A stretch of 64,000 bases of DNA, taken from IMG/VR virus record IMGVR_UViG_3300027974_001530. The stretch is one strand, 5' to 3'. This stretch comes from a virus. Taxonomy: Duplodnaviria; Caudoviricetes. This document shows positions 7,331 through 41,250 of the stretch, in pieces (position 1 is the stretch's first letter; every line of letters begins with the position of its first letter). The translations under genes and the position numbers were made by a program. Below the pieces are notes generated by a model. That model was not told where the DNA came from, ran no database searches, and saw only the letters and a program-made list of their open reading frames with translations.

Positions 7331-8953
7331 ATGACTTGTGTTTTACTTGGAACGTTTTCCTACTCATCAACTAGTCCTGAATTACTTTGTGACGAAATTA
7401 AAACTATATCAATTTATGGTGATGATTTAAACTTGGGATCCTTAATCTATTCAGATTCCTTATGTACAGTGTTGGTAAATAATGGATTTTATTCTGACGG
7501 GATTAATACATATACAGTTGGTGAAACAAGTGACAGGGGAACCATAGAAACCATAGAACCTTGTGCCGAATGTAATACAGAATACTGTATCTCAGGTACA
7601 GACACGTATGACGATAACTATACGTTTAATGGATCTTATAACGGTTTCCCATATTATACAGGACAAAGTGGGAGTTATTTGATTTACTATTCGACAGGCG
7701 AGACTTGTTGGTGCGTTTCTTCCGTATTAGATGGCCCTTGTGAACTTTTTGGTAAATCGCCTTGTCTTAGTAATTGTCCTGATTTATGTGAAACATTTTT
7801 TACTGAAGGATATTGTGTTGTAAGTACAACAACAACATATAATAGTTGTGACATAATTGATTTTGAGGCATTATTTAATTGTGATGTCACTCCAACTCCA
7901 ACTGTTACTCCAACATCAACACCAACACCAACCCCTACAGTAACTCCAACACCATCTAATGTGTGTAATAGTTTAAATTTTGTCGCAACAGGTATAACAT
8001 ATACCCCAACACCCACACCAACACCTAGCGACACACCAAGTCCAACTCCAACACCAACAATAGATTGTTTGGTTTCAGGTTTAGTTACATTTAATATTAT
8101 TGATGATTACATAAGATGTTCAAATAGTAAGAAATTTAGAGATTGTTTTACAGGAACTGAATATTTTAGTGCCGATCTAATTCTTATAAATGGTGAAATC
8201 CCTATACAAGGTTATGTTTATAAAACAATAATTAATGATGAATCTATTTGTGCAACTTTCTTAGGTTTAGTGGATAACATAAGTGGTGTTGATAAAATAG
8301 AATTAGTGTCAGAACTTGGTCCTGAAAATGAAGGTAAGTGTTTGGATTGTATTCCGAGTCCTTCAAATACCCCAACACCTACACCGACATCAACCCCAAC
8401 ACCTACACCGACAACTCCGGTTGGTTGTATTGAGTGTTCATCAATAACTAACTTACCTCAAGTCGGTAATTCAATTACGGTTAATGGTATAACAATTACA
8501 GGTAATGGAACAGGTACCATAGAAGAAGGAATACTTGGTGGTTTCTTGGGTTGGTGTCTTACGGGTCCTTTAATACAAAACGGGTTTTTATATTTAGGTA
8601 ATGGTGTTTTACCTGTGAATTACCCATTCTCATATACTTTAACATTTAGTCAACCCGTAAATAATATAAGTTTAAGAATAAATGGTTATAATTATTTAAG
8701 TCCAACAAATTATGAAACCTTTGCGTTTACGACAAATTCAGGTAACCCATCTATTTCAAGTTGTAGTTATTGTTGCGCTAAAATTAATAGTAATAACATA
8801 GAGGCATCTCCTTGTCCTCAAACATCCCCTCAAGGTAATATTGGTTCAGGTATATTCACCTTTACAACTTTGACACCATACACAACTCTTACAATAACAG
8901 GTAATGGAGCTGCAAATTGTGGAGGTACTGTTTTTGATTTATGTGATTTTTAA
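7331..8953 (+). CDS. Cys-rich, Pro-Thr-linker multidomain putative virion surface protein
   Basis: 540 aa, 31 Cys by manual count, three TPTP tracts; follows 7114..7329 after a 1-nt gap. Confidence 0.7.
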   Translation: MTCVLLGTFSYSSTSPELLCDEIKTISIYGDDLNLGSLIYSDSLCTVLVNNGFYSDGINTYTVGETSDRGTIETIEPCAECNTEYCISGTDTYDDNYTFNGSYNGFPYYTGQSGSYLIYYSTGETCWCVSSVLDGPCELFGKSPCLSNCPDLCETFFTEGYCVVSTTTTYNSCDIIDFEALFNCDVTPTPTVTPTSTPTPTPTVTPTPSNVCNSLNFVATGITYTPTPTPTPSDTPSPTPTPTIDCLVSGLVTFNIIDDYIRCSNSKKFRDCFTGTEYFSADLILINGEIPIQGYVYKTIINDESICATFLGLVDNISGVDKIELVSELGPENEGKCLDCIPSPSNTPTPTPTSTPTPTPTTPVGCIECSSITNLPQVGNSITVNGITITGNGTGTIEEGILGGFLGWCLTGPLIQNGFLYLGNGVLPVNYPFSYTLTFSQPVNNISLRINGYNYLSPTNYETFAFTTNSGNPSISSCSYCCAKINSNNIEASPCPQTSPQGNIGSGIFTFTTLTPYTTLTITGNGAANCGGTVFDLCDF

Positions 8954-9666: not shown

Positions 9667-12372
9667 TTAAAAATCTATTTTAACTAAGTACTGTTGGATT
9701 CCCTGTCTTAAAACAGGTGATTGTAATTTAGACATAACTAATATATCTTTATCTTCATCTAACAATGCAATTTCGGTTATATAAGATTTTGTACCTTGTT
9801 TCCAAGTTGGGTTTGTTGTATTTTGGAACTCGGTAAAATTTAAATTAATTTTATATTTCATCTCATATATTGTTGCCATAATATCAGACTCAAAAGACCC
9901 ATAAAAATAGTATTCATCACCAAAATTTAAATCAGGTACATCATTACCAATTTTTGTTAAATTAATGTAATTACCTAAATCATAATATGGTGCTTTATCA
10001 TATTGATCTTTAGTTATAACAAATGTATTATTTGTTAATGTGTCTTGGGTTACTATACCTCCTAAATCACTCGTATAATCAATTACTCTCCAATTTGATG
10101 GGTCAGGTCTTTGACCTGTTACCACTTTTTGACAAATTATTTGGAAGTATTCCGCAAAATAACCTTTTGTGATGTCACAAGTTTGTGGACATATTGTTGT
10201 TGTGGTGGTGATTGGGTAATAAGTAGTGGTTGTACTTGTGATTGGATAATAAGTGGTACTTGTAGTTGTGATTGGATAATAAGTTGTAGTTGTTGTTGTT
10301 ATTGGATTTTCCCCCAAACAATTAAACTCTCTTCCAAATCTTACCGCCACGTTTTGTGAAACATTAGGACTACAATCATTATTATTACCGACTAATTTAA
10401 CATAGTAATTACAATGTAGTGAATTAGTACTACATGTTTTATTTGTAAATCTATAAGTTACATACATAGTTTCTCCATTACCTGTAAGAACCCCATCAGC
10501 ATTTAAAGATGCTTGTCCACAAGTGTTAGGGGTTATTAACGATAGTTGTGGTGCTGGTAATGTAAAGTTTCTATTTGACTTGTAAGACATTGCAGCAATT
10601 ACCTCTTCATCATCAATAATAATTAATTTACTATCAGGGAATACTTTACCAATTCTATTAGGTAGTCCATTTTTATTTTTATTGTTATCCCAAAGATGAT
10701 AATATCTAATTCCAGGATTATTCATATCATCATTTTTAGTTGTTTGTACATATCTCACTTGGAATAGTCCCTTACCTTCAAATTCTGGAGGATCTACCCA
10801 AAACGTTTGTCCAAAACAACAATCGGGATTTTTATGCCACATTAACCATGGTATATGTAGTCTAAAATTTCTTGCTTGACCTGTAGTATCATCAAGATTT
10901 GACGGATCATAAGGTTCTAACGCAAATTTTTCACCATAGAAGAAATCTATGGTTTGATTAGTGTAGTGTATAATTGCAATCGCTTTTTGTTCTTCAGGTT
11001 CAACATCAACAACTTCACCTAAAGAGTTATAATAGAATGTATCTGTTGTCTCAGCACTTAAAGTGTTATTAATAAAAAATGTCTGACCTGAATTTGAATT
11101 GTACCCAAAGTATTCTTTAGACCCGATATAATCTACAGATCCAAAATATTCATACCCTTCATATTTTGTTGGTACTAAACCAGCAGGATTTTCAGTCCAT
11201 GGAATGTTCATATTCCAAATTTTTACATCAAACTGATCGGTATCACATATTGATTCAAAATCAATAACTTGTTCACCCCAATGTGGGTTTGGTGTTAGAC
11301 TATCATATATAGATGTCATGTTTGGCGGATAAATTAAAGTTCTCGCATAACAATGACTAATAACGGTACCGCAAAAATCAGGTGTATTTCTATCTAATGT
11401 TATTATATCTTCACAAACATCAACAATTCTATATGTTAATATCTGATAACAAGAGTTCATAGAGACCACACAATTAGGTGGTGGTGGTGCCGGACACAAT
11501 CTACTAGGTGTAGGTGTCAAACATGGTGTTTTAGTTGGCGTAGGTGTAGGTGTTGGCGACTCACAAGGATTATAATTTTTAGTAACACTTGGTGTCGGTG
11601 TCGGTGTTGGTGTTTGAGATGATGTCGGTGTAGGTGTTAATGCCGGAACGTCTTGACAATCTCCCCATACCAAGAAATCTCCATCTTCTGTTGTTAAAAA
11701 TTCAGATAATTCTGTCATTAATATACATGTCTCTGAAATTGGCATTTGAGATGATGTGGGTGTTGGTGTGAGTGTTGGGGTTACGCTTGGGGTTGGTGTT
11801 GGTAAATTAATACAACTACAGTCATACTCTCCAAAACCATCATAATAAATTGTTATAATATCACCTATAGATGGTTTATTTAAATTCGTATAGTTACATC
11901 CAGAATATATTATTTGTACTTTATTTGACCCACTTAATGTGGACATATCTATAACATAATTAGAACTAACAACATACTGATCATTAGTTAATGCACTCCA
12001 AACTATTGTGTCGGCGGTGGTATTACCCGTAAAAAAACCTCTTAATGGGGCTCTATTATAAACAGGTTCAACAACAGAGTCCATATATGGTATACCATAT
12101 GTTGATCCACTAGATCCATCAACATAATAAGGATATTTAATACTTTGTCTATTTGATTCAGGTACTCCCGCAGAGTTTTGTGTATTGAACGCAGGTTCTA
12201 ACACAAATAAATTATTGTAATTATAATTTGATGGTAATTTATCGTACGACACTTCACTATCCCCTACTTGGAAATACGCAATCTTAAAACTACCCTGTGA
12301 TAATTTTTTTCTACCTGTGTCAGTAACTCTAGTGTTAACTAACCCTGATGTATTTTTAATTATATATGCCAT
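9667..12372 (-). CDS. large tail/baseplate-associated structural protein with inserted Pro-Thr and Thr-rich tracts
   Basis: N-terminal VTDTGRKKLSQGSFKIAYFQVGDSEVSY and C-terminal YITEIALLDEDKDILVMSKL resemble conserved ends of large-myophage tail/collar proteins; TATTTAT upstream. Confidence 0.6.
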   Translation of the reverse strand: MAYIIKNTSGLVNTRVTDTGRKKLSQGSFKIAYFQVGDSEVSYDKLPSNYNYNNLFVLEPAFNTQNSAGVPESNRQSIKYPYYVDGSSGSTYGIPYMDSVVEPVYNRAPLRGFFTGNTTADTIVWSALTNDQYVVSSNYVIDMSTLSGSNKVQIIYSGCNYTNLNKPSIGDIITIYYDGFGEYDCSCINLPTPTPSVTPTLTPTPTSSQMPISETCILMTELSEFLTTEDGDFLVWGDCQDVPALTPTPTSSQTPTPTPTPSVTKNYNPCESPTPTPTPTKTPCLTPTPSRLCPAPPPPNCVVSMNSCYQILTYRIVDVCEDIITLDRNTPDFCGTVISHCYARTLIYPPNMTSIYDSLTPNPHWGEQVIDFESICDTDQFDVKIWNMNIPWTENPAGLVPTKYEGYEYFGSVDYIGSKEYFGYNSNSGQTFFINNTLSAETTDTFYYNSLGEVVDVEPEEQKAIAIIHYTNQTIDFFYGEKFALEPYDPSNLDDTTGQARNFRLHIPWLMWHKNPDCCFGQTFWVDPPEFEGKGLFQVRYVQTTKNDDMNNPGIRYYHLWDNNKNKNGLPNRIGKVFPDSKLIIIDDEEVIAAMSYKSNRNFTLPAPQLSLITPNTCGQASLNADGVLTGNGETMYVTYRFTNKTCSTNSLHCNYYVKLVGNNNDCSPNVSQNVAVRFGREFNCLGENPITTTTTTYYPITTTSTTYYPITSTTTTYYPITTTTTICPQTCDITKGYFAEYFQIICQKVVTGQRPDPSNWRVIDYTSDLGGIVTQDTLTNNTFVITKDQYDKAPYYDLGNYINLTKIGNDVPDLNFGDEYYFYGSFESDIMATIYEMKYKINLNFTEFQNTTNPTWKQGTKSYITEIALLDEDKDILVMSKLQSPVLRQGIQQYLVKIDF
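10208..10307. repeat. 30-nt tandem repeat (about 3.3 copies) encoding PITTTxTTYY
   Basis: Units start at 10208, 10238, 10268 and 10298 (partial), core gtgattgg(g/a)taataagt. Confidence 0.9.
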
Positions 12373-13406: not shown

Positions 13407-14462
13407 TTATACGCAATGACCTAAAGTAGATTCGTTTATTCCGTATATTACAGATGGATTATTAATCCAATTTTCGGTGATAGTACTATTAGGATAATCA
13501 GAAGAATTACTCAAATATGAATAATAAGACCCTGAAGGTCCTGCCGTTGGGTTAAATATTTGCCAAAACTCCCATCTATTATCAACATCATCCCAAAATA
13601 CGTATCCAATTAATGATGGTGGGAATGTTGAAGGATTATATACTCCATAGTAAAACTTATTATTATACGTTCCTGCAACATAAGCATTACTTGTAATTAT
13701 TATAGGTGTTGTCCCATTTTTAACCACAGTAAAACACATATCTGTTGGCGGATAACTACATAAACCATATGATGTTAACATATATGTAACTCTTTCACTA
13801 ACCCAATCAACTGTGTTATCAACAGGGAAACTATTTGTTGATGGTAAATACGCAAGTAGTAACCCTCCACCTAAAACTAAAGTCATTTCCCATCTATTTA
13901 ACGTTGAGTTCCACCAAACGTAAGCATTTCCTCCAACACCAACTAAAGTATAATAGTACTTACCATTATAAAGTCCTGTTGATGGTATTGTTGTATATAT
14001 TGGGCCCAAAAATTCATATTCAGTTGTAAAACAAATGATTGGTTCTGGAGTTGCCGATGGTGTTAGACTAGGTATCGGTGTTGCCGTTGGTGTTAAAGTA
14101 GGTGTAGGCGTAATGGTAGGTGTCGGTGTAGGTGTTGGTGTTCCTGTTGGTGTGGGCGTTGGTAATGCCGTAGCACTTAAAATACATGTTGTATTAACAA
14201 TAAAATCACCATAAGAATCTGTTATTGTAACAGGGTATTCTCCAACCCCTAAATTTGTAATTGCTGGAGCTATATTTCCGTTTTCCCAAGAAATTGTATA
14301 TGGTGGTGTTCCTCCCGTAACTCCAACCGCAATAGATCCATTAAAAGTTGTAACATTTGTTGGTTCTTTACTGAAGCATTTAGCCCCCATAGGAAATATT
14401 GTGAGAACGTCACATTCATTTCTTGGTTCAATACTTGGTTTTGGTCTATCAGGTGATGCCAC
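13407..14462 (-). CDS. putative virion protein: SprB-like repeat, Pro-Thr linker, two aromatic modules
   Basis: GSIAVGVTGGTPPYTISW...ITNLGVGEYPVTITDSYG; GTG start; TATTTAT at 14477-14483. Confidence 0.65.
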   Translation of the reverse strand: MASPDRPKPSIEPRNECDVLTIFPMGAKCFSKEPTNVTTFNGSIAVGVTGGTPPYTISWENGNIAPAITNLGVGEYPVTITDSYGDFIVNTTCILSATALPTPTPTGTPTPTPTPTITPTPTLTPTATPIPSLTPSATPEPIICFTTEYEFLGPIYTTIPSTGLYNGKYYYTLVGVGGNAYVWWNSTLNRWEMTLVLGGGLLLAYLPSTNSFPVDNTVDWVSERVTYMLTSYGLCSYPPTDMCFTVVKNGTTPIIITSNAYVAGTYNNKFYYGVYNPSTFPPSLIGYVFWDDVDNRWEFWQIFNPTAGPSGSYYSYLSNSSDYPNSTITENWINNPSVIYGINESTLGHCV

Positions 14463-14486: not shown

Positions 14487-15464
14487 TTATTTGTCGTTTT
14501 CAATGAAAGATTTCATAACTTCTATATATTTGATCGTTGAATTATTAACTTCAACATAATCAAAATGATTAGGGTTATTCCTTAATTTTTCAATTGGGTC
14601 TACATTTATATACTCGCCCTTGTAAAACTTAATTCTTTTAAGATTGTCAGTTACTCCGGCCATGTGTAGTATTGGTTTTTTTTCGTACACTTGTATTGGG
14701 TCTGTTGCCCAAGAAAAATCTAACTCTTTTGTTATTTTTGTGTCGTTACCGTTTAACCAAAGATTCCAAAGTAATGACCACATCTCTGCAGTCCAAAATT
14801 GGATCTCTCCTGGATTTATTGGGAATCTTTTTTGATAATCTAACATTTGGTTATACAAAGGAGTACAATCGGTATATATTTTTTTCCACAGATTATGATC
14901 TGTATTTTTGATTAGGTACTGTCCTCCTCCTGAATTTTCTTGATTACATTTAACACAATCAACACTAACTCCAATAACATCAACCATTTCTTGTAATAAT
15001 TGACCTTTTTCAGATGTTGGGTGGTTTTTTTCATATCTATTACAACAATCCATAATATAATTGTAACCTATGTAACCAATTGTGTCTGAAAGATATGTTA
15101 TATCATCATCTAATAATAAATTAAAATTAGGTAAATAATTAAATATAATATCGGCATCGTGTAGAAAAAATAACTTACCAAATTCAGGATATTCCTCTAA
15201 CCATTTAGAGATTAGGTAAGGTTTAACGCTTGGTATATACGTTTTTACGTCTCTATTATCCTCATAAAAATGAATGTTTATTCCAAAATCTTTTAATTTT
15301 AAGGCATCTTCAGTCGGGGTTTTAGCTCCGTGTACCATGGCAAAAATTACGTGAATTTGGTTTGGGTCAATTCCTTTTTCTATAAAATTGTGAACATAAA
15401 GTTTAATTTGCCAATGAAAATATGGAACATCGGGTTGTGCGGTTACAAATACAATATCTTTCAT
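14487..15464 (-). CDS. GT-A glycosyltransferase resembling peptide O-glycosyltransferases (SGT1/GT96, HPAT/GT95)
   Basis: TAQPDVPYFHWQ, YIPSVKPYLISKWL, FFLHDADII (DxD), SGGGQYLI, WTAEMW and PILHMAG occur in the order recalled for plant SGT1/HPAT motifs; no signal peptide or TM segment. Confidence 0.7.
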   Translation of the reverse strand: MKDIVFVTAQPDVPYFHWQIKLYVHNFIEKGIDPNQIHVIFAMVHGAKTPTEDALKLKDFGINIHFYEDNRDVKTYIPSVKPYLISKWLEEYPEFGKLFFLHDADIIFNYLPNFNLLLDDDITYLSDTIGYIGYNYIMDCCNRYEKNHPTSEKGQLLQEMVDVIGVSVDCVKCNQENSGGGQYLIKNTDHNLWKKIYTDCTPLYNQMLDYQKRFPINPGEIQFWTAEMWSLLWNLWLNGNDTKITKELDFSWATDPIQVYEKKPILHMAGVTDNLKRIKFYKGEYINVDPIEKLRNNPNHFDYVEVNNSTIKYIEVMKSFIENDK

Positions 15465-15499: not shown

Positions 15500-17458
15500 T
15501 TAATAAATTTTGTTTAACGTGAATATCTCTGAATATATTGAGTTTCCTGCGTTATTAGTATTCCATTCAGCAGTGACAAGAAGTGTATTAGATATTGTAG
15601 TATCAAAAGTTGTGTTGTTTACAATACTGAAATTTACTCCTTCAAAGTCAAGTCCTCCATTTTTAGTGTATGAAAACAATCCCCCTGATGCTATAGAACC
15701 TACACTTGCAACTCCTAATTGTCTAATAGTGAAGTTCACATCTAGTTTCCAATGTTTATTAGTGGTGGCATTCATTGCCATTACCCCTGTTTCCGCTAAT
15801 AATACACCCGAATCCGTTTTAATTCTAATATGTAAAGTGGCAGAACCCACACAAGATAGATGCCCTATTAACACTCCATGAAAACCATCACCCACACTAA
15901 ACCCATTTGCGGGAATTATAATAGATCCTACTCCCCCACTTATTAATGTAGTCTCAACAGTTGTTGCACTTACTGCAACGCTGGTTCCTGTTTGAGAAAA
16001 TAAACCATATACCGTTGGTCCAGGAATTGTTTTAACTTTAACTTCACCCGTTGATCCGTCTCTTGTTAAATAATTTAGGGTTGTTCCCGTATCTGTTGTT
16101 GGTGTTGATGATATGTTTAATGTTGTTGCCGTAAGTCCACTTGATATAATAGTATTACCACTTACGTGTAGTTTTTTTGATGGTGTGGTTGTCCCAATAC
16201 CAACGTTACCTGTACTAGTGATATTTATTACACCAGATGATGGTGCAGACGTTCCAATACCACCTATTGACATAGTACCACCAGAAGGGGTATTAATCCA
16301 AAAAGATGTACCTAATCCATATTGTAATCTTAAACCGGTATTAGTATTACCTGACCCCCATATAAATTGATTACCATCTACTATGGACACTTTTTCACCG
16401 GGGTTTGTTATTCCAATACCAACACGACCAATTGAGTCAATTACAAATGGTGTTGAATCAGGGTTGGTGCTATCTTCTACTAAGAATGAGTTACCGGCAT
16501 TTAAATTATTTATGTGAAGTTTAGCAGTTGGTGATGTTATACCAATACCCACATCACCTGATGAAGAGATAACCATTCTAGGTGTACTGTTTGGTCTAAA
16601 TGATATACTATTACTTCCTAGAGTTCCTATAATAAACTCATTACCTGCGTTAAATAACTCATTATTATCTATACCAATACCGTTATTAATTGTACCAACT
16701 AATAATGTTGAACCTGATAAACTAGTACCACCAATTGTTGATGATCCACTAATAGCGATTTGTAATCGTTGAGTAGGGTTTGAATTACCAATACCCACAT
16801 TACCAGATGATGATATATACATTCTAGGGTTAAATTCAGTACCGAATATAAGTTTTCCACCAGAAACTTGATTAAAAACATTTAAATTAGTACTACCAGA
16901 TGTTTCATACCCAATAAAACCAAATCTACCGGCTGATATCCCTTGTGGGTAATATTCTTGATATACATGATCAATACCTTCATATCTAACAGAATTAGCG
17001 TTACCACTGATCTGTAGGGCAACTGCTGGTGTAGGTGTTCCAATACCAACACGACCAATTGAGTCAATTACAAATGGTGTTGAATCAGGGTTTGTATCAT
17101 CCTCTACTAAGAATGTATTACCTGATGTTGTGTTGTTTATATGAAGTTTTGCTGTTGGATTTGCAATCCCAACCCCTAATCTATTATTTGCTAAATCAAT
17201 GGTAACCGCACTTGTAGACCCAAAATAAACATTTCCTTCATCTAAAGGGTTTATGTTAAGAGGTGAACAAGAATGGATGTTAGAAACGTATAAATCGGTA
17301 ATACAATAACCTGTTATTGAGTCGAAAACTTGTGATATTTTAGCCTTATAGGAAGATCCCGCCGGGTTTCCTTGTGATGTGTCACCTGTTATAACAATAT
17401 GAATTAAATCATTTAATGTTACTCCTGTCGCTAAAGATCTGTCTGTTAAAAATGCCAT
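15500..17458 (-). CDS. tail fibre-like protein with G(N/R/D)VGIG repeats
   Basis: Repeated GRVGIGTPTP / GNVGIGNSNP / GDVGIGITSP / GNVGIGTTTP beta-fibre units and a globular C-terminal domain. Confidence 0.7.
   Translation of the reverse strand: MAFLTDRSLATGVTLNDLIHIVITGDTSQGNPAGSSYKAKISQVFDSITGYCITDLYVSNIHSCSPLNINPLDEGNVYFGSTSAVTIDLANNRLGVGIANPTAKLHINNTTSGNTFLVEDDTNPDSTPFVIDSIGRVGIGTPTPAVALQISGNANSVRYEGIDHVYQEYYPQGISAGRFGFIGYETSGSTNLNVFNQVSGGKLIFGTEFNPRMYISSSGNVGIGNSNPTQRLQIAISGSSTIGGTSLSGSTLLVGTINNGIGIDNNELFNAGNEFIIGTLGSNSISFRPNSTPRMVISSSGDVGIGITSPTAKLHINNLNAGNSFLVEDSTNPDSTPFVIDSIGRVGIGITNPGEKVSIVDGNQFIWGSGNTNTGLRLQYGLGTSFWINTPSGGTMSIGGIGTSAPSSGVINITSTGNVGIGTTTPSKKLHVSGNTIISSGLTATTLNISSTPTTDTGTTLNYLTRDGSTGEVKVKTIPGPTVYGLFSQTGTSVAVSATTVETTLISGGVGSIIIPANGFSVGDGFHGVLIGHLSCVGSATLHIRIKTDSGVLLAETGVMAMNATTNKHWKLDVNFTIRQLGVASVGSIASGGLFSYTKNGGLDFEGVNFSIVNNTTFDTTISNTLLVTAEWNTNNAGNSIYSEIFTLNKIY
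16411..17092. repeat. 55-bp perfect direct repeat inside the fibre gene (16411-16465 and 17038-17092)
   Basis: ttccaataccaacacgaccaattgagtcaattacaaatggtgttgaatcagggtt occurs twice, encoding NPDSTPFVIDSIGRVGIG. Confidence 0.95.
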
Positions 17459-17481: not shown

Positions 17482-17790
17482 TTAAGTTTGGAAATCATAT
17501 TCCTCGTTATCCATAAAATAAAAGTCGTCTCCGTCTTGAAATTGTTTTATTGTAAGAGATTGTTGTGTACAATCAACTATTTTAAATATTTCACAACCTA
17601 ACGAGTCAATTAGTTTTATACCAACCGCAGGTGCGGTGTTAAATTGTGATGGTATTGTTAATACTATTGTTGGTGGTTGTGGTGGTAACACATTTGCAAC
17701 CAAAACACATTGATTACCATAGACATCACAAACAAACACATTATATGATGTGAAAATAAAACTTGTTGTTTGTATCTGTATCTGTGCCAT
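17482..17790 (-). CDS. small Cys-containing beta module plus acidic aromatic C-terminal tail
   Basis: YNVFVCD...C...IP...GIKLIDSLGC; TAATG coupling to the upstream gene. Confidence 0.7.
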   Translation of the reverse strand: MAQIQIQTTSFIFTSYNVFVCDVYGNQCVLVANVLPPQPPTIVLTIPSQFNTAPAVGIKLIDSLGCEIFKIVDCTQQSLTIKQFQDGDDFYFMDNEEYDFQT

Positions 17791-19982
17791 TATATAAAAT
17801 AAGTTGGGTCTATTATGTTTGGTACTCCTCCAATGTTTTCGTAAATTTTAAATAGGGTTGTTACGTACTGTGAGGGATATGTTGCGGTATCATATGTCCA
17901 TATTTCAAAGTCACCACTTAAACTTGTTATTCTAAATTGATAACAAACCATTGTCCAACTATATGTTCCAAGATTTTTAGTTGGTGTGTAGTTATAAAAA
18001 TAAAAATTAGATAGGTCACATGTTTCGGCACTTAAAGATGGTATTGTCGTTAGTGGTGATCCGGAATATGGGATTGTTTGAATAACATATTTTGGGATCT
18101 CCACAGAAGCGGTCACAGTAGTTGAGGAAAAAGTATTAGTAGATGAGTTTAGTAATCTAAAACGGTAAAACGGATTATCTACTTTTGATCCAGTATTGGT
18201 TATAATTGATATATTATTTGTTACTGCCGTTGAGGAATTGTTTATAAAATCACATATCCCATTTGTATAACCACTACAATTAATGTCACAACTTCCCCAC
18301 GTTAAAGAATTTGAGATTGTTGGCATTGTAATTGACATTGTCCAAGGACCGGTCCCTCCTGTTGTTACTACTGAAGATGGGTGAATGTAGTATTCTTGGA
18401 ATCCAGTTATATCCCCACATTGTTGTGTGCCTGAAGCTAATGGTATTCTAAGATTAAAAAATCTATAATAATCAATATCTAATGGGTTTGTTGGGTTTCC
18501 CGAATAAGAAGTATAAAAATTATCCCAACTAAAGTTATAATGTTCTAAATCAGAATATGTATTAAATGTCATGACAATTAAACCCTCACCAAGAACCACA
18601 GATTTATCATATGTAATTGTATTTGTATTTGGAACATCACAAGTCGGGGTAAATATATTAAAGAATGGGTTTCCACATGTAGTTATTGGGTTATAATATA
18701 AAATTGACGTGTTTAAATCATATGGTACTGTATCATAAATAAACCCATTTATACTTCCATTATATGACGTACCGTCAATAAATCCATTATCGGTATTTAG
18801 ATATCTAAAAATATTACTATCGTTACATCCCGAAATTTTAAATCCATAATAATACCCATCACATGGTTGTGAAATTTTATTTATGGTAGATTCGACAATT
18901 CTAATTGGGGGTATTAATGTATCGTAACACAATTCACAATCAAAAGTCTCTAAACACTCACACAGTAATCCCCAATTTGTGTTATTATTTAAAGGGTTAG
19001 GGGTTATTTCTATTTCTAAATAATCCCCACTATTTACAGTAATTCCTGTTAAACATAAAACTTTTGGGAAAAGCGTATATGTTGTTAGGTTTTTTATAGT
19101 TTTTGGGGTAACTAATGGACTAAAATTTGTTTCTGATTGGTTCATCCCCATACTAATATACTCCAAAACTATAGGGACAGAATAATTAGACCCAAAAAAA
19201 GTAATTTTTAAGTCATCATAAATTTGTTGTCCCTTAAATGAATAAGCAAAATATGGCTTTAATGGATCCAAAGCAAATGTTGTCACAACAGGTTGTGGTG
19301 TTATACTTGTGGTGGCACTAAAACTAAACCCGTGAGAATAATAAGGACTTGTTGATCCAGGTCCGTTATCACAAGTTAACGCATCTACATTAACTGTAGT
19401 AGAGTTAAAACAATTAAGGTCCGTATATTCCGTTCCATTTAATTTAATTTTTTGTATTACAGGAGTATAAACTCCGGCAACTATAGGAACTTCGCTTGAT
19501 CCTGTTAATGGGTGTGTATATAAATAATCACCAACATAATCCGTCCCATATCCTGACGTGAAAGCAACTGTTGTACTTACAATTCCAGGTCCGTACCATT
19601 CAATGACGTAATCAGTTACACTAGGATCACAACTTGCGGTAATTATTCCCACTGAAATTACTCCTATTGGGTTTGTATCATAAAAATCAAATCCAATATC
19701 ACAACTAACACATAATGGATTAATGGTTGTTGTTGATGTTGTCGATGTTGATGTCGTGGTCGTTCCTTGGAACGTTTGACAATATTCACAATTTGCTGCG
19801 TCTATAATTTTAACACCAAAAGATGAATATCCACTATATGGTCCTGGAATTGTTATTGTTGCGGGGACAGAACTAATTGTATCAACTAAAGTACAATCTA
19901 TATCAGGACAATCTCTACATACATACACATCAACAGGATATGTTACTTGTGATATATTTGTTATATTAACTTCTAAAGGCAT
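17790..19982 (-). CDS. Cys/Thr-rich putative virion surface protein
   Basis: 730 aa; N-terminal paralogous module YPVDVYVCRDC...GVKIIDAANC followed by a TTTTSTSTTSTTT linker. Confidence 0.65.
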   Translation of the reverse strand: MPLEVNITNISQVTYPVDVYVCRDCPDIDCTLVDTISSVPATITIPGPYSGYSSFGVKIIDAANCEYCQTFQGTTTTSTSTTSTTTINPLCVSCDIGFDFYDTNPIGVISVGIITASCDPSVTDYVIEWYGPGIVSTTVAFTSGYGTDYVGDYLYTHPLTGSSEVPIVAGVYTPVIQKIKLNGTEYTDLNCFNSTTVNVDALTCDNGPGSTSPYYSHGFSFSATTSITPQPVVTTFALDPLKPYFAYSFKGQQIYDDLKITFFGSNYSVPIVLEYISMGMNQSETNFSPLVTPKTIKNLTTYTLFPKVLCLTGITVNSGDYLEIEITPNPLNNNTNWGLLCECLETFDCELCYDTLIPPIRIVESTINKISQPCDGYYYGFKISGCNDSNIFRYLNTDNGFIDGTSYNGSINGFIYDTVPYDLNTSILYYNPITTCGNPFFNIFTPTCDVPNTNTITYDKSVVLGEGLIVMTFNTYSDLEHYNFSWDNFYTSYSGNPTNPLDIDYYRFFNLRIPLASGTQQCGDITGFQEYYIHPSSVVTTGGTGPWTMSITMPTISNSLTWGSCDINCSGYTNGICDFINNSSTAVTNNISIITNTGSKVDNPFYRFRLLNSSTNTFSSTTVTASVEIPKYVIQTIPYSGSPLTTIPSLSAETCDLSNFYFYNYTPTKNLGTYSWTMVCYQFRITSLSGDFEIWTYDTATYPSQYVTTLFKIYENIGGVPNIIDPTYFI

Positions 19983-20009: not shown

Positions 20010-23000
20010 TTAAGGTATAAAACTTATTGTTTCACACGATGATATTTGAGATGCCCCCCCAAACGGTATTGTTGCGGTTTGTAAATATGTTAAAGTATAT
20101 GGTGAATTTTCATCTATTTGATAGACTTCTCCCCCATTATTTAATATATGTATTTTACCTGAGTCAGTGAATAAACCGTATGGGTTTAGTATGGTTGGGG
20201 ATATTAATTGGTCAAATTCTAATGTTCCTGTTGAGTAGTCATACTGTGAAATATATCTGTCAAACCCAATTTGGGTTGTTAATATTAATTTATTACTTGT
20301 TGTATAAATAAAATCCCCTGAAATTGTTCTACCCGCAGGTATATTAAATTTATTTGTTACTATGGGACTAACACCACTTATATCAATTTCTACCACAGTT
20401 TGAGGGGTACTAAAATTTGTAACTCCTGTTGTTGTGATAAGAGTAGTATCATCAATTGCGGTTAATCCAGCACCAATAGTGCAGTTACTAATAACAATAT
20501 TTCTATTGTAAGACCCACTAAATGGACTTAAAATTATGTCATATTCTGTTATTGCACTTGTGGATGCATAACTTAACCACATTTTATTTGAGGTATGTGC
20601 AATATCTCCAGGTCCAGCATCTAAAGTTCCACTTATAAATGGTGTTAATAATATATTAGTATTTGTTAATGGATAATAAACATATATACTATTGTCCAAA
20701 TAAAAAGATGTCATTATATCACATGTCAATAAATTTGGTGGTGTAGGAGGTATAGGGGATGGGGTTGGTGTAACAGGAGGCCCACAAACATCGGCAACAC
20801 AAGTATATAGAGATAAACTATAACCACCTGTACCACTATCTAATGTAGGTACGGTACTTGCACAAACATATGTTGTTGCGCCTCTTCCAACCCCAACTCC
20901 CTGAGGAATAGGTTTACAATCGGTATAACTAAATGTTGACCCAGTTGATGCCGAACCACCACTTAACTCATAACAATCACAAGGAAAGGCCGGAGTTTGG
21001 GTTGGTGTTGGTGTTACTGTTGGTGTTGGTGTTGGATTTAAACAGTTACCCAAGGTTGAGTCTTCTATTACACATCCAAAGGCAATCATAAGATCAGTAA
21101 CCCATGGATACGTTACATTACTTTCTGGAAAATATGATGGATTATCATTATGTTGTAAAATTATTGTTGGTGCCGAAATGTTAACATGTTCCCATCTGTT
21201 TGTTATATCATTCCAATATACAATACTGTTACAACTTGTTGTACAGTCTGATTGATAAATTATATAGTATGGTTTACCGTTTATTATACCAACAGGATTT
21301 AAACTACAATCCCAAGAAGGTAATACCATTAAGTCAGTATTTACGGTAAAACACATAATTGTTGCGGGAGTTGCGGTTGGGGTTAACGTTGGTGTAGGTG
21401 TAACGGTTGGTGTTGGCGTTAATGTGGGCCCCACTAATGTCATATCTGCATTAAACCCTAAACATTCAGGTGCCTTACCACAATCTTTACAAGAAATTAA
21501 ATATTCAATTAGTAAATTGATTTTAACGTTTGTATCCCCTAAATCATTAAAATTTGTTAACTGACAATCCTTAATTTTCTCATTACAGTTATTTGTGATT
21601 GTTATCTTATTTTTTCCAAGATCAATTATAACATCACCAATTTCAGGATATTCTTGTATTGTGTCTTTAAGACTTTGTATCCATATTGTGTCCGCATATT
21701 GAGCAAAACTACCACCTGTATATGTATAAAATAAATCTTCTTTTATAACCCCATCGATTTCTACTTGGGTTCTGAATGTCGCATTTACAATATAACAACC
21801 AATATCTCCTGATGTTAGATCAAAAAACCCTTCATTCATCATTTGTAGTATTCCTCTCTTACCATATATTCCGGTATTAACAAAATCATCAGAACATACT
21901 GTATATGAAGCATAACTAGTTGTTAATTCAGTACCATTTAATATTATTGTATCACTTTTTAAACAACCTTCACTATCTGTCACTAATACAGAGTAATTTC
22001 CATTTGATAACCCCGTTAAATGTAGTCCTGTTTGAGCCCCAACATTTGAACTCCAAACAATTGTGAAAGGTGGTACTCCACTTGTTATATTTAAATAAAT
22101 TTCACCGTCATTACCAATAGTTGGTTGTACACCAACTAAAGTAAAATCAACAGGTTGGGAATCTGCAATATAGAAATTTTCAGTTTGTGTACAGGTAGGT
22201 GATCCCGAATCTGTTACTGTTGCAACATAAAACCCAGAACTTAAATTGTTAAATACATTTGTTAATTGGGTTGTTGTTGTAACGGGTGTTCCTCCTGATA
22301 AATTATATGATAACGGTAATGTTCCTCCTGAAGTAGCGGTTATTATTGCGGTACCATTATTTAAACCACATGTTGTATCTGAATAACTTACTGATATTTC
22401 ATATTTATTTACATTTACAACAGTAAAATGTCCAGTATATATACATCCCGAATTATTAGGGACATCTTGTATTAATATTGTATAACTTCCACTTTCTAAA
22501 CCAAAAAAATCACAAATTGAGTTTGTGGTAGTTACGGTAGAATTTCCGTTGAAGTCATATAAAGTGTATTGGTAGTTTCCCGGAGATAGTCCATTATTTA
22601 ATTCTATGTGAACAGATCCATCACTTGAATTACAATTAGAGTTTGTTACTGACATTGTCGTAACAATAAAACCATTTGGTGTTAATAACGAAACGGAACT
22701 TATCACATTACAAAGTCCTGCATCTGTTACTGACACTGTAAATACTCCCGAAGATAAACCTGTAAAAGTATAGATATTACTATACTGTATTGTTATTTCA
22801 CCGTTTGAACCTGAAAAATAATAAGGTGCGGTTCCTCCTGAAACAATAACCTCAACCTCTCCATCATTTGAAAAACAAGAGGGTTGTATTGTTGTTAACA
22901 TTGCGGCAACTCCCAAATCAGGAACATCAGATAGTACAACACTTTTAGTTATCGTACATCCTTCAAAGTCGGTTATTGTAAGTGTGTAGGTTCCCAAAGT

Positions 23001-23681
23001 TAGTCCTGTAACTTCAGGGCCTGTTTGCGTTCCAACATTAGGACTCCAACTATACGTATAAGGCGGATTTCCTGTTAGACCTGTCACAAATATTTTTCCT
23101 GTACCATCAATAGGTACACAACTTGCATCATTTACAACATATAGACCAAAGTCCAAAGGACTTGTTTCTTTAATTAAACAAACTTCACTTCTTCCTGTAC
23201 ATCCACCACCATCATCACCGATCACATAATATAGTCCTGGTGAAAGATTTGTAAAAACATTACTTGTACTGTCACCACTTGTTATATACCCTAAAGTGTT
23301 TTCGTATAAATAAAACGATCCAACACCATAATAATTTGTTGTTGATGCGGTAATCGTACCATTATTTAGTCCACAAGTAGTCCCACTACTTTCTATAGAC
23401 ACACAGGTTCCTGAAGATATTGTAAATTCAACATATCTAGGAATAAAAGGTGGTTCTAAACAACTATCTATAATCTCTAAAATATAAGTATCAGGAGTTA
23501 GACCTGTAACAAAATAAGTTGTTGTATTTGATGATAGCGGTAATAAACCTGATGTTGATATCTCACTTACAGTATAATTTGGGGATCCTCCTGTAATAGA
23601 AAAGGAAACTCCCCCAAATCCTGAGTTTGTGCAGTCTCCACTTACACTATAATTATATATATTTATTGACCCACAACTCAT
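20010..23681 (-). CDS. large fibre/adhesin-like virion protein: about 7 SprB-like repeats, Pro-Thr linkers, C-terminal beta-propeller-like region
   Basis: Repeats of C...G.I.V...GG..PY.Y.W...TGL..G.Y.V.VTD..GC in aa 20-585; three PT tracts. Confidence 0.7.
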   Translation of the reverse strand: MSCGSINIYNYSVSGDCTNSGFGGVSFSITGGSPNYTVSEISTSGLLPLSSNTTTYFVTGLTPDTYILEIIDSCLEPPFIPRYVEFTISSGTCVSIESSGTTCGLNNGTITASTTNYYGVGSFYLYENTLGYITSGDSTSNVFTNLSPGLYYVIGDDGGGCTGRSEVCLIKETSPLDFGLYVVNDASCVPIDGTGKIFVTGLTGNPPYTYSWSPNVGTQTGPEVTGLTLGTYTLTITDFEGCTITKSVVLSDVPDLGVAAMLTTIQPSCFSNDGEVEVIVSGGTAPYYFSGSNGEITIQYSNIYTFTGLSSGVFTVSVTDAGLCNVISSVSLLTPNGFIVTTMSVTNSNCNSSDGSVHIELNNGLSPGNYQYTLYDFNGNSTVTTTNSICDFFGLESGSYTILIQDVPNNSGCIYTGHFTVVNVNKYEISVSYSDTTCGLNNGTAIITATSGGTLPLSYNLSGGTPVTTTTQLTNVFNNLSSGFYVATVTDSGSPTCTQTENFYIADSQPVDFTLVGVQPTIGNDGEIYLNITSGVPPFTIVWSSNVGAQTGLHLTGLSNGNYSVLVTDSEGCLKSDTIILNGTELTTSYASYTVCSDDFVNTGIYGKRGILQMMNEGFFDLTSGDIGCYIVNATFRTQVEIDGVIKEDLFYTYTGGSFAQYADTIWIQSLKDTIQEYPEIGDVIIDLGKNKITITNNCNEKIKDCQLTNFNDLGDTNVKINLLIEYLISCKDCGKAPECLGFNADMTLVGPTLTPTPTVTPTPTLTPTATPATIMCFTVNTDLMVLPSWDCSLNPVGIINGKPYYIIYQSDCTTSCNSIVYWNDITNRWEHVNISAPTIILQHNDNPSYFPESNVTYPWVTDLMIAFGCVIEDSTLGNCLNPTPTPTVTPTPTQTPAFPCDCYELSGGSASTGSTFSYTDCKPIPQGVGVGRGATTYVCASTVPTLDSGTGGYSLSLYTCVADVCGPPVTPTPSPIPPTPPNLLTCDIMTSFYLDNSIYVYYPLTNTNILLTPFISGTLDAGPGDIAHTSNKMWLSYASTSAITEYDIILSPFSGSYNRNIVISNCTIGAGLTAIDDTTLITTTGVTNFSTPQTVVEIDISGVSPIVTNKFNIPAGRTISGDFIYTTSNKLILTTQIGFDRYISQYDYSTGTLEFDQLISPTILNPYGLFTDSGKIHILNNGGEVYQIDENSPYTLTYLQTATIPFGGASQISSCETISFIP

Positions 23682-36801: not shown

Positions 36802-38643
36802 TCAAGAATATGTTACTGAAGATAAATTAACAACACTTACTCTAATATCTTTGTTTCCAAATCTAACTTGGTATATTTGCGTTGGGTCAGCAAAAATAGT
36901 GTCGGATATCAACTGAATTTCTTTTGTTGATTGATTAGAATATGGTTGTGATGTTTGTGATGAAGAATACTGTCCCCCAACTTTGTTAAAGACCTGTATA
37001 TCCGATATTGACAATACTCCGTTTTCCGCTTGTATTAGTCTTCTTAATTCAGAAATATTAACATTTTGACCTAATTGTCTTGACGTTGGTGACATATATG
37101 TAGATACAATATCTATGATTTTTGCAATTATAGATCCCTGACTTTGTGAAGAATCTAAAACCACCGCAATGTCAAACCCTAAGTCAATAACATTAGCACT
37201 TTCTACAGATATGTAATCATTTATCATTCTATAGTTTGATAAATAATTTGCAATATTAGTTTTTAATGCGTTTGGAACTACTGATGTAAGTGTCCCACTT
37301 GAGTCATAAGAAAGTAATTTTATTTTTATTTTGTTATTTTCCTCTACTATCGACACTTTAGATGGTGCCCCAAATTGTGAAGGCATATTTCTTAATAATG
37401 AATCATAGTCATTAACCGTTACCGCTCTATTTTGTGATGAGAAGTTGAAAGAAACAAAATTTCTAATTTCCTCTAATGTTGGTGCTGCCGCTCCACCAAC
37501 CGCAGCGATCGGGTTTGTACAACTTAATGAGTTTGACGTACTTGTATTAAGACTCTCAGAAGGACCGTTAACAAAGAAATTACTTTTCTGTACTTGAGTA
37601 ATAACCCCAACACCGACATTACTTGATATTCCCCCACCAATTCTATACTGAATAAACAATGTTGAGTTTGATTTAAGTGTACTTCCTAAACCTAAATTAT
37701 TAACGTATTTGTTTATGTTAATTGATTGTCCATTCCTTGCAAATTCCCTTAATTGTTCTTCCGCAGAATTATTACCACCACCAAAAGTTAATTTCATAAA
37801 ACCTTGTGGGGTATATTCTGTAATAAATTTATCACTTGTTGTAATGTATCTACCGATTTTAATACCAGGAGCATCCGAAGGTTTTGTTGGGTCTTCAACA
37901 AAAACTCTGTCTTCAACTAAGGCCCTTACTTCATAAAATCTGTTATTAGGAGATAAAAAATCTTGATCTGAAGGTACGTTACTATATTGTGATCCGTCTT
38001 TTACAATGACACTAGTTACTCCCAACACATTTCTTTCAGGTAAAAATAACTCAAAAAATGGTTTAACATCGTTAGGTGTTATAACTCTTTTAAAAACTTT
38101 AGTTAAACCATTAAGAACTACTTCTCTTTTGGTTACTGTGTAATTTTGTATTGTACCATTTGAATCTATATTTGGTCTTACTATTCTTGAATTTGGTTGT
38201 CCTTCTCCATTATATTGAGATGAAAAATCTATATCATACACAGTTTCATATGATTGACCTGCACCATTAACTTGAGTACCTCTTCTTAATATACCACAAT
38301 ATCTTATATCTTCCTTATCTCCAAACGCAGGTACAACAATAGAAAAATCAACTAATGATATTGATGGTCTTTGTCCCGGTATTTTTAAACCGTATGTTCT
38401 TGCAATGTTAAATAATGAAGTCTTTTGTTGTGCGTATTGTAATACAGTCTCTTGTATACTTCTATCAATTTGAAAATTAAGGTTGTCGGCAACTGCGGCA
38501 TTTAAATCCATTAAAACGGAAAATACCGAAGCATCATTAAAATTTTGTATTAATTCAGGATAATAAGTTTTTACGTAATTAACTAATTCTGTTCTAACTC
38601 CTTGAAAATCCCTTGTTGTATATGATATTTTTTTATCTGCCAT
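36802..38643 (-). CDS. baseplate wedge protein (gp6 / baseplate J-like)
   Basis: YTTRDFQGVRTELVNYVK, YRIGGG.SSNVG, AVGGAAAPTLEEIR and QNRAVTVNDY. Confidence 0.85.
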   Translation of the reverse strand: MADKKISYTTRDFQGVRTELVNYVKTYYPELIQNFNDASVFSVLMDLNAAVADNLNFQIDRSIQETVLQYAQQKTSLFNIARTYGLKIPGQRPSISLVDFSIVVPAFGDKEDIRYCGILRRGTQVNGAGQSYETVYDIDFSSQYNGEGQPNSRIVRPNIDSNGTIQNYTVTKREVVLNGLTKVFKRVITPNDVKPFFELFLPERNVLGVTSVIVKDGSQYSNVPSDQDFLSPNNRFYEVRALVEDRVFVEDPTKPSDAPGIKIGRYITTSDKFITEYTPQGFMKLTFGGGNNSAEEQLREFARNGQSININKYVNNLGLGSTLKSNSTLFIQYRIGGGISSNVGVGVITQVQKSNFFVNGPSESLNTSTSNSLSCTNPIAAVGGAAAPTLEEIRNFVSFNFSSQNRAVTVNDYDSLLRNMPSQFGAPSKVSIVEENNKIKIKLLSYDSSGTLTSVVPNALKTNIANYLSNYRMINDYISVESANVIDLGFDIAVVLDSSQSQGSIIAKIIDIVSTYMSPTSRQLGQNVNISELRRLIQAENGVLSISDIQVFNKVGGQYSSSQTSQPYSNQSTKEIQLISDTIFADPTQIYQVRFGNKDIRVSVVNLSSVTYS

Positions 38644-39390: not shown

Positions 39391-41250
39391 TTATACTATT
39401 TCACAAGCCCCACCAGCACAGGCGGCTTCCCCTCTAAGGTCGGTATTATCTTGTAACTCAATAACTTTTGTAAGATCCACATCTTTTAATGTGTTTAATA
39501 ATCTATCAAAATCTTCTTTTGTACAATCTTCAAAAGGTGCTTGGGTATAAGTTCCTCCGTTATAAGGTAATACAGATAGTCCATTATAAAACTTACGGTT
39601 ATCCCACATCCATTCACCAACTAATTCCCATTCGTCTTCTTTAATTGAAACTGTTGCCGATACGTTATGAGTATTTTGTCCTGTTCTATGACCTGGTTTA
39701 ATCCATTCTTGTGCAACTTTTTTAACTCTTTCCAACATTTGGAATACTGATTCGTGTCTTATGATAGCACCTTCAGGGGCTTTTTGTGGTATACCAATTA
39801 CTGCAGTATCGTGAGGACGGAAAAACTCATCTTCAATCAACTCAGGGTGATTAATCGCCAAGTAATTATAGATTGATTCATTTTTACCTACACGGATTCT
39901 TCTTAGGTAATAATCGTTATGCCAAGCGTGGATTCCTGACGATGTGCCCAATACCAATGATGAGGTTCCGGATGGTTTAACTGTCGTTGATCTTGCAGAT
40001 TTGTTAATTCCAATAAGACCTGCAACCCTTTCATTTTCTTCTTTAACGGCTTGAGCCGCCGCTTTCATATCATATCCTAAAACAACACCCGAACCGATTC
40101 CTGTCATTCCAACACCAATAAGTGCGTCTTTTTCAGTTGTTCTTTTCCAAACGTCTCTTAGGTAATGGAAGTCAGTATAACCTGCTTGTAATGTTCCAAT
40201 GAATGCGGCCCCTTTAACTCTTTGTTCAAAATCTTCTTGTGATTCAATATCAGACGCATTTACTTCACATAAGTTACAGAATTGGTTAGGACGAAGTGCA
40301 ATCTCACAACAAGGATTAGTTCCCCAATCTTTATCGTTTGACAAATAGATACCAGGTTCTCCTGCTCCTGATAACTCAATACGTTTCCAAAGACCCATAA
40401 AGAATTCTTTTGTAATTTTGTGACGAAGAAGTACTGCCGAGTTATTTGCTCTACCTCTTTGTGCATTTTGTTCCCACCAATTACCTGACTTACAAGAAAT
40501 CATTTCTTCATCATCAGCCGAGAATAATGAGATAAGTGCCGCTCTTCTAATACCACCTGCAAGTACTGCGTCTGCAATATGACATATAATATCGTGAGTT
40601 TCAATTGATGTTAATTTTTCACCATCTTTTTTGTTATTTAAAACTTTTGTTATGTGGTGGATACAATCTTTTAACGGTTGAGGTCCTGGAGCTTTTCCTC
40701 CAGAAGTAACCAATAAGGCTCCTTTATGTCGGATATCCGAAAAATCAAACACAGGGGTTGACGCTTTTGTGCCCATATATGACTCAATAAGTACTTTAAT
40801 TGCGTCTGCCCATCCTTCAATTGAATCTCCAATTAAGTACCTTCTTGTTCTTGTTGGATTTGGTTTTTTAATTTCTGGTAGTTTATCTACGTGGTGTCTT
40901 TGTACCGAGAACCCTACTCCTGTACCTCCTAAAAGTAAGAACATTGTCTCCGAAAATGCGTCCGTATGGTCAATAGGTAAATAAGCACAGTTATAAACTC
41001 TATTTGGTGAAATCTCAATTGGTTTACCTCCAAATTGTAATGATCTCATTGATGGAAGAATTTTTTTATCATATACCATTTTGTATACGTTTTCAATTTC
41101 TTCTTTAATTTGTGGGTATTTTTTTTGGTGCATTTCTTTGTTTCTTGTTACCAATTCTTCCCACGATTCCCTTCTATTTAATTCAGGTACAAATTTAGCG
41201 TATTTCATATACACCGTAATATCACTCAATATTTTTTGTGAAATATCCAT
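39391..41250 (-). CDS. nrdJ: class II (adenosylcobalamin-dependent) ribonucleotide reductase, RTPR-like
   Basis: PSMRSLQFGG, YNCAY, GGIRRAALI, NPCCEI, FCNL, TVKPSGT and C-terminal CAGGAC redox pair; no nrdB partner nearby. Confidence 0.9.
   Translation of the reverse strand: MDISQKILSDITVYMKYAKFVPELNRRESWEELVTRNKEMHQKKYPQIKEEIENVYKMVYDKKILPSMRSLQFGGKPIEISPNRVYNCAYLPIDHTDAFSETMFLLLGGTGVGFSVQRHHVDKLPEIKKPNPTRTRRYLIGDSIEGWADAIKVLIESYMGTKASTPVFDFSDIRHKGALLVTSGGKAPGPQPLKDCIHHITKVLNNKKDGEKLTSIETHDIICHIADAVLAGGIRRAALISLFSADDEEMISCKSGNWWEQNAQRGRANNSAVLLRHKITKEFFMGLWKRIELSGAGEPGIYLSNDKDWGTNPCCEIALRPNQFCNLCEVNASDIESQEDFEQRVKGAAFIGTLQAGYTDFHYLRDVWKRTTEKDALIGVGMTGIGSGVVLGYDMKAAAQAVKEENERVAGLIGINKSARSTTVKPSGTSSLVLGTSSGIHAWHNDYYLRRIRVGKNESIYNYLAINHPELIEDEFFRPHDTAVIGIPQKAPEGAIIRHESVFQMLERVKKVAQEWIKPGHRTGQNTHNVSATVSIKEDEWELVGEWMWDNRKFYNGLSVLPYNGGTYTQAPFEDCTKEDFDRLLNTLKDVDLTKVIELQDNTDLRGEAACAGGACEIV

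Follow-up and report, generated by a model that had tools for sequence, protein, structure and literature searches.

We analysed a 64,000-nucleotide stretch of tailed-phage DNA (Duplodnaviria; Caudoviricetes; IMG/VR record IMGVR_UViG_3300027974_001530), hereafter the window, and conclude that a gene on its minus strand, at 14487..15464, probably encodes an enzyme that O-glycosylates threonine-rich tracts on virion proteins. The 325-residue product, read from an ATG start, is a predicted soluble glycosyltransferase (GT) of the GT-A type; it belongs to the family phrog_4417 and is a candidate peptide O-glycosyltransferase resembling the plant enzymes HPAT and SGT1. Protein O-glycosylation had been proposed for this locus from the nucleotide sequence alone (the original prediction), and that interpretation is supported here by a fold search and by the co-occurrence of the family with Thr-rich virion genes.

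The window belongs to an IMG/VR contig of 91 kb with a CheckV completeness of 31%. Relatives carrying an 82%-identical GT have genomes of 274-291 kb and a relative with a 72%-identical GT has one of 318 kb. Because the genomes of these relatives span 274-318 kb and the 91-kb contig is only 31% complete, the source of the window is an AT-rich jumbo phage. A copy of the GT with 69% identity is also found on CAYGYN010000024.1, a 5.3-kb contig binned with a Candidatus Woesearchaeota metagenome-assembled genome (MAG); this archaeal-binned contig is most likely a mis-binned fragment from a phage of the window's lineage.

The GT sequence contains no hydrophobic segment, the maximum 19-residue Kyte-Doolittle mean being 0.92, and the protein is therefore predicted to be soluble; its N-terminus is not signal-like. 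The match to phrog_4417, a family annotated as 'unknown function', is full-length (E 2.4e-68; residues 6-319 on profile positions 3-290 of 293). At E<=0.001 the family comprises 832 clusters at 50% identity, and it is present in 77 isolate phage records. Metagenome relatives of the window's GT form more than 1000 clusters at 90% identity, the best 120 of which are 71-98% identical to it. Other sequence searches with the protein gave little: the only Pfam hit at E<=1 was a chance match to SwrA (E 0.065), and NCBIfam and PDB chains, the latter searched with the family profile as well, yielded nothing meaningful, the best further hit being a TALE-repeat artefact (E 0.034).

An AlphaFold2 model built from a 60-sequence alignment had very high confidence scores (predicted local distance difference test score 97.5, predicted template modelling score 0.94) and showed a Rossmann-like GT-A fold. 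The original prediction of a soluble 325-residue GT-A enzyme is thus borne out by the open reading frame (ORF), its hydropathy and the modelled fold. Six ordered motifs had also been read from the sequence and matched to motifs of plant SGT1 and HPAT. All six are present, at residues 14-19, 76-89, 101-107, 178-181, 224-229 and 265-268, and they are the most conserved columns of the 60-sequence family alignment: Y15 is kept in 91% of sequences, W18 in 96%, Q19 in 91%, Y76 in 100%, D103 in 98%, D105 in 100%, G180 in 100%, W224 in 98%, M228 in 98%, W229 in 96% and H267 in 100%. The DxD motif is D103-A-D105, and the distal His that accompanies it, H267, is invariant. The fold and these conserved residues point to a metal-dependent and probably retaining GT-A enzyme with its DxD and His site intact. 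We rejected the idea, raised by the position of the gene in phage VPE25, that it encodes a major capsid protein; the fold is clearly enzymatic, and the capsid gene lies upstream.

Foldseek comparison of the model with the PDB gave at least 335 matches at E<=0.001, and the best 50 were all GT-A enzymes. The neighbours listed (WbbM, GT6 GTA/GTB, glycogenin, UGGT, LgtC and LARGE1) are all retaining GT-A enzymes with a DxD and a His. Among Swiss-Prot fold models the top match was Arabidopsis SGT1, a peptidyl-serine alpha-galactosyltransferase (E 7e-11, template modelling (TM) score 0.63), followed by the seven entries RDN1, PLENTY, NOD3, RDN2 and HPAT1-3 (TM 0.53-0.63). These SGT1/HPAT alignments had E values from 7e-11 to 1e-6 and covered query residues 4-324; it is on such near full-length structural alignments that the proposed line-up with the plant motifs now rests. 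Galactinol synthases of family GT8 ranked below them (TM 0.43-0.47), and neither the Pfam GT8 model PF01501 nor a GT6 model matched the GT. In the AlphaFold database, the fold clusters ranking after the GT's own family were algal 'HPAT-like domain' proteins, and Pfam HPAT (PF23452) was annotated in 10% and 58% of the members of the neighbouring ESM-Atlas clusters. By its modelled fold the phrog_4417 enzyme is the closest structural relative of GT95 and GT96, short of demonstrated membership.

The strongest evidence on the acceptor comes from gene context, and the family is tightly coupled to Thr-rich tags on virion proteins. Ten out of ten carrier isolates examined had poly-Thr tracts on tail-tube, capsid, decoration or other neighbouring virion-module proteins, mostly as C-terminal tails. 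The hosts of these phages are Enterococcus, Lactococcus, Lactobacillus, Lacticaseibacillus, Clostridium, Mammaliicoccus, Arcanobacterium (as recorded) and Chryseobacterium. The GT gene directly follows the tail-tube gene in Lactococcus phage 1706, Enterococcus phage phiFL1A and Clostridium phage phiCTP1, while the Mammaliicoccus and Arcanobacterium phages have a single short poly-Thr ORF between these two genes. In Enterococcus phage 4995_1 and Lacticaseibacillus phage R3.3 the gene just before the GT is that of the capsid, and in Lactobacillus phage Bacchae it is one for a 116-residue protein with 45% Thr. Chryseobacterium phage MA9V-3 has two ORFs near the GT with Thr/Ser tracts of 20-60 residues.

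For comparison we assembled nine phages without the GT, each having a tail-tube protein that shares 36-60% identity with the phiFL1A protein: three Streptococcus Javan prophages, SPP1, SplendidRed, Bassarid, phiJL-1, ATCC8014 and AS1. Thr tails were found in none of the nine (10/10 versus 0/9 isolates; p ~1e-5 with relatedness ignored). The pattern also holds inside the genus Coetzeevirus, where the GT-bearing R3.3 has Thr tails appended to the C-termini of its capsid and tail-tube proteins and the alignable C-termini in Bassarid, phiJL-1 and ATCC8014, which have no GT, end plainly. The isolate set thus contains at least two clean independent contrasts, and several further unrelated carrier lineages. 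One member of the negative set, PV831789.1 ('Aeromonas phage AS1'), has a capsid and tail-tube region close to that of Lactobacillus Coetzeevirus phages. Over the last 50 residues its capsid protein matches the Bassarid one exactly, and its tail tube shares 52% identity with that of phiFL1A; from these sequences its Aeromonas host label looks doubtful.

In a blind scan, IMG/VR loci were picked solely by DNA, using 12 consecutive Thr codons, (ACN)x12, or as a control 12 Glu codons, (GAR)x12, and the family profile was used to look for the GT in the two sets, which were of equal total length. The GT was present in 8 of the 118 poly-Thr loci and in 0 of the 119 poly-Glu loci (Fisher p 0.003). The eight enzymes are 31-36% identical to the window's GT and fall into three clades. 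Each of the eight genes directly follows, on its own strand, an ORF in which several poly-Thr linkers space the domains. Among bacterial genomes, MAGs and prophages, a Thr-tract ORF was found within 150 bp of 30/41 single-domain GT copies, whereas control viral DNA has a background of 6 such ORFs in 1.08 Mb. In a tree built from 106 catalytic domains the window's GT falls in a jumbo-phage clade of its own, neighboured by a Bacillota-phage clade and several aquatic-phage clades; in the Bacillota-phage clade 30 of 32 members adjoin Thr tags. Co-occurrence with Thr/Pro-rich virion genes, which the original prediction had put forward as a check, therefore holds in the window's lineage (below), in unrelated isolates, in a controlled blind scan and in prophages.

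In the window the GT gene lies within a long minus-strand run of virion-type genes, and (TP)n or Thr/Ser tracts occur in five ORFs close by. Directly downstream, 13407..14462 (minus strand) encodes a candidate acceptor of 351 residues with a SprB repeat (Pfam E 1.8e-7), a (TP)n linker at residues 101-129 and a C-terminal domain. The other four candidate acceptors are a fibre-like protein of 901 residues (9667..12372, minus strand) with three (TP)n tracts at residues 191-283 and, towards its C-terminus, four Thr/Ser runs of 5-6 residues, each between 'PI' and 'YY'; a 540-residue protein (7331..8953, plus strand) with (TP)n tracts at residues 187-210, 223-244 and 342-364; a 730-residue protein (17790..19982, minus strand) with the Thr/Ser run TTTTSTSTTSTTT at residues 74-87; and a virion-type protein of 1223 residues (20010..23681, minus strand) with (TP)n tracts at residues 752-772, 883-897 and 968-983 and a weak PHROG match to 'virion structural protein'. 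Directly upstream of the GT, 15500..17458 (minus strand) encodes a tail-fibre-like protein of 652 residues (PHROG tail-fibre families, E 3.9e-17 and 5.8e-13) with only a short SSTPTTDTGTT stretch, and a baseplate wedge gene was recognised by PHROG match at 36802..38643. The fibre and baseplate matches and the five tract-bearing ORFs confirm that the GT sits inside a Pro/Thr-rich structural cluster.

In the window's own lineage T/S/P tracts were present in the GT flank of 77/80 relatives. Counting only distances of up to 100 bp, a tract-bearing ORF lies downstream of the GT in 39 relatives and upstream of it in 12. The tag associated with the family across phages is mainly poly-Thr, and the (TP)n form is particular to the window's lineage. 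A complex prediction with the GT, Mn and a 58-residue (TP)n segment of the downstream protein scored 0.01; this gives no answer and counts neither way.

Other genes related to glycosylation were also surveyed. The 91-kb contig, about 31% of the genome, holds no nucleotide-sugar genes and no other GT families. Three near-complete relatives have 6-7 GT2-type matches each, and two of the three have a nucleotide-sugar epimerase/dehydratase. The two relatives with an 82%-identical GT, G001 (291 kb) and G003 (274 kb), each have seven GT2 matches in two islands, one epimerase/dehydratase and one thymidylate-synthase-family gene; in G001 these lie at C1:218992-220652 and C1:271701-280704 (GT2 islands), C1:121854-122561 (epimerase/dehydratase) and C1:148562-149659 (thymidylate-synthase-family gene). 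The relative with a 72%-identical GT, G002 (318 kb), has six GT2 matches and a thymidylate-synthase-family gene and gave no epimerase match. Judged by gene content, glycosylation is a heavy investment of the lineage, and base modification is possibly another. The GT2 and epimerase genes could extend the glycan or serve other ends.

Several observations weigh against O-glycosylation of Thr-rich virion tracts by this enzyme. The isolate comparison is uncorrected for kinship, and its two clean independent contrasts fall inside one tail-tube family. The Pfam HPAT model PF23452 did not match the GT and matched only one of 60 relatives, at E 0.09. We therefore file the enzyme as a structural relative of GT95/GT96 and not as a member; of the proposed kinship, the ranking of SGT1 and HPAT at the head of the Swiss-Prot matches, above GT8, stood, and the Pfam test failed. 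The cross-phage association is with poly-Thr and the tracts of the window are mostly (TP)n, so that carrying the association over to TP repeats is an extrapolation. A large clade of multi-domain cellular proteins from Bacteroidota has no adjacent Thr-tract gene, which means that the family is not tied to tags everywhere. The GT2-type and thymidylate-synthase-like genes of the relatives suggest that other acceptors may be glycosylated as well. A literature search found no biochemical or mass-spectrometric report for any member of the family.

The poly-Thr nature of most tags leaves room for a narrower version of the system, in which virion glycosylation is limited to pure Thr/Ser runs such as those of the 901- and 730-residue proteins and the (TP)n linkers are unglycosylated flexible spacers. 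Every cross-lineage association found involves poly-Thr or Thr/Ser runs and none involves TP repeats, and Pro/Thr linkers are common as unglycosylated spacers in bacterial multi-domain proteins. In the window's lineage, however, tract-bearing ORFs right next to the GT mostly have tracts of T/S/P type, and in the window itself the protein encoded just downstream (13407..14462) carries a (TP)n tract only. Thr in a TP context is moreover a classic O-glycosylation site, as in mucins and cellulase linkers. We consider this restriction to pure runs unlikely, if still deserving of attention.

An acceptor other than protein (host envelope polysaccharide, teichoic acid, phage DNA bases or a small molecule), with the Thr-rich genes nearby through hitch-hiking of modules, appears improbable. 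Gain or loss of the GT goes with gain or loss of the Thr tails, even inside one genus, and the GT gene directly follows the tagged gene in at least eight lineages. The enzyme lacks a membrane segment as well as any partner of flippase or Gtr type, the small temperate siphophages that carry it have no base-hydroxymethylase beside it, and its nearest structural relatives are peptide-directed. These points stand against the facts that characterised phage glycosyltransferases mostly modify DNA or host surface glycans (PMC12619734), that the lipopolysaccharide/O-antigen enzymes WbbM and LgtC are among the PDB neighbours of the GT, and that relatives of the window phage have a thymidylate-synthase-like gene.

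A plant-like route, in which the prolines of (TP)n are hydroxylated first and the GT then glycosylates hydroxyproline, is very improbable here, because a gene for the PF13640 oxygenase is absent from the window's contig and from three relatives that are 93-100% complete (this concerns the gene only; a host enzyme is possible) and the tags of most other phages are free of proline, even though HPATs are among the closest structural relatives and relatives in Actinomycetota and Myxococcota, fused to a GT60 domain, adjoin a prolyl-4-hydroxylase-type oxygenase of this family. Thr/Ser O-glycosylation is the better reading at this locus.

Two clades of the tree of catalytic domains consist of long multi-domain cellular proteins without adjacent Thr tags, and internal Thr tracts were found in only one of about 80 multi-domain homologues. 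Some of the long forms are fused to GT60 'GlcNAc' domains (PF11397, the family of Skp1-hydroxyproline and mucin-Thr GlcNAc-transferases), to protein O-FucT domains or to GT6 domains. Because of these fusions and of peptide-modifying gene neighbours, the long forms suggest peptide or protein acceptors. In Acidimicrobiales MAGs and a Myxococcales MAG, a GT relative of about 1000 residues is fused to F5/8-type-C and GT60 'GlcNAc' domains and adjoins a prolyl-4-hydroxylase-type 2-oxoglutarate-Fe(II) oxygenase (PF13640, E 7e-21) and an NAD-dependent epimerase (L342:3155-4468, minus strand, with L342:5980-9021, plus strand; also L344, L353, L359 and L349). In gene content this layout resembles eukaryotic hydroxyproline glycosylation pathways. 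In Chitinophaga niastensis (L348:2562-10107; also L361 and L400) a 582-residue relative with a second GT domain, Glyco_transf_7C, sits between a radical-SAM enzyme and a LanC-like protein and is followed by a GT1 gene; the locus looks like a modification cluster for ribosomally synthesized and post-translationally modified peptides, with glycosylation.

We also examined transcription of the GT gene, for which a promoter of a non-structural class, and hence possible expression before its neighbours, had been suggested. An element TATTTAT(A/T/C)(A/T) recurs 10-25 nt upstream of many start codons in the window and is found before minus-strand starts at 12372, 14462, 17458, 27588, 36729, 39106, 42662, 59044, 61095 and 62606. 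It is absent from the 35-nt gap between 15500..17458 and the GT gene. The element precedes virion genes and a DnaB-like helicase gene alike; because it also stands before the helicase gene it is not specific to late or structural genes, and it may be a general phage promoter element rather than a late-specific one. A sigma-70 scan was at chance (70 sites against 70.9 expected from shuffled sequence). Co-transcription of the GT with the upstream fibre gene is just as likely, since no terminator lies in the 35-nt gap between them. The suggestion of a separate promoter class is accordingly unsupported. The helicase gene (41277..42662, minus strand; phrog_19, E 6e-60) and a ribonucleotide reductase gene (39391..41250, minus strand; phrog_367, E 5e-133) directly adjoin the baseplate module, so that structural and replication genes are interleaved on one strand.

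For O-glycosylation of virion tracts we propose the following course, inferring from the genes and the model the tags as acceptor, the GT as initiator of the glycan, the nature of the sugar and the purpose of the coat. The GT would act in the cytoplasm as a Mn/Mg-dependent enzyme using a host nucleotide-sugar as donor. During infection, before or during virion assembly, it would attach the sugar to hydroxyl groups of Thr (and Ser) in fibre-like proteins from the surrounding genes, within their unstructured linkers of (TP)n or Thr-run type. The product would be short mucin-like glycosylated stalks or tails on the particle that are stiff, protease-resistant and hydrophilic, and the coat may serve stiffness, protease resistance, adhesion or shielding.

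If this is correct, with a tag as simple and recognisable as a poly-Thr tail (capsid, tail tube) or a Thr/Pro stalk (fibres), a coat of sugar would be widespread among phages that infect Enterococcus, Lactococcus, Lactobacillus, the Staphylococcus group, Clostridium and aquatic Bacteroidota. Consequences would follow for dairy phage biology, for the stability of virions and for the pharmacology of phage therapy (immune clearance, mucus adherence), and the tag with its transferase would make a compact pair for protein glyco-engineering. The plant enzymes for extensin and CLE-peptide glycosylation, of obscure origin, would moreover be connected with enzymes of bacteria and phages. A broader proposal, for and against which we find the case evenly balanced, is that phrog_4417 forms the founding phage and bacterial branch of the plant GT95/GT96 superfamily of peptide O-glycosyltransferases, initiating mucin-like O-glycosylation of poly-Thr or (TP)n virion tags in phages of at least four bacterial phyla, with cellular cousins in bacteria that act on hydroxyproline (where a prolyl hydroxylase adjoins and a GT60 domain is fused) or on ribosomal peptides (in radical-SAM/LanC clusters). 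Were it true, sugar-coated virions would be common well beyond mycobacteriophages. Our literature search found no description of the GT family or of poly-Thr tags on phage virions.

Three known systems are comparable to the one proposed. Plant and algal HPAT (GT95; HPAT1-3, RDN1/2, PLENTY and NOD3; PF23452) and SGT1/SERGT1 (GT96) have in common with the phage GT the GT-A fold, the DxD and a C-terminal His. Their acceptors are hydroxyls in Pro/Ser-rich unstructured peptide repeats, a type of sequence also encoded beside the phage GT. Sequence identity with the phage enzyme is only 13-16%. Plant HPAT and SGT1 are Golgi type II membrane proteins, and the phage GT, unlike them, has no type II membrane anchor. 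The likely phage acceptor is Thr, whereas the plant enzymes use hydroxyproline or Ser, and the phage lineage has no prolyl hydroxylase gene, in contrast to the setting of plant HPATs. GT8 and other retaining GT-A enzymes (glycogenin, LgtC, galactinol synthase, UGGT of GT24, GT6 GTA/GTB and WbbM) have the same fold class and metal-site layout and are the best solved-structure matches of the phage GT (Foldseek E 1e-6 to 2e-5); their TM scores against it, 0.37-0.47, are below those of the GT95/96 models.

The third system is that of mycobacteriophages, and PMC12619734 (2025), citing Freeman et al. 2023 (Cell Host Microbe 31:1216), gives these as the only phages in which virion glycosylation has been demonstrated experimentally and states that it alters antibody recognition. 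In that system, known from Che8, Corndog and others, phage-encoded GTs decorate virion surface proteins. A phage-encoded GT genetically coupled to tagged virion proteins, the mark of mycobacteriophage-type systems, is also what we found here. In the Firmicutes relatives of the phage GT the tags sit at the C-termini of capsid and tail-tube subunits; mycobacteriophages have theirs on these two proteins too, and likewise at the C-terminus. In the jumbo phage, by contrast, the tracts form linkers inside fibre-like proteins. The proposed system differs further in its tag, which is poly-Thr or (TP)n, and in its hosts, which are of Bacteroidota type and Firmicutes where those of mycobacteriophages are Actinobacteria.

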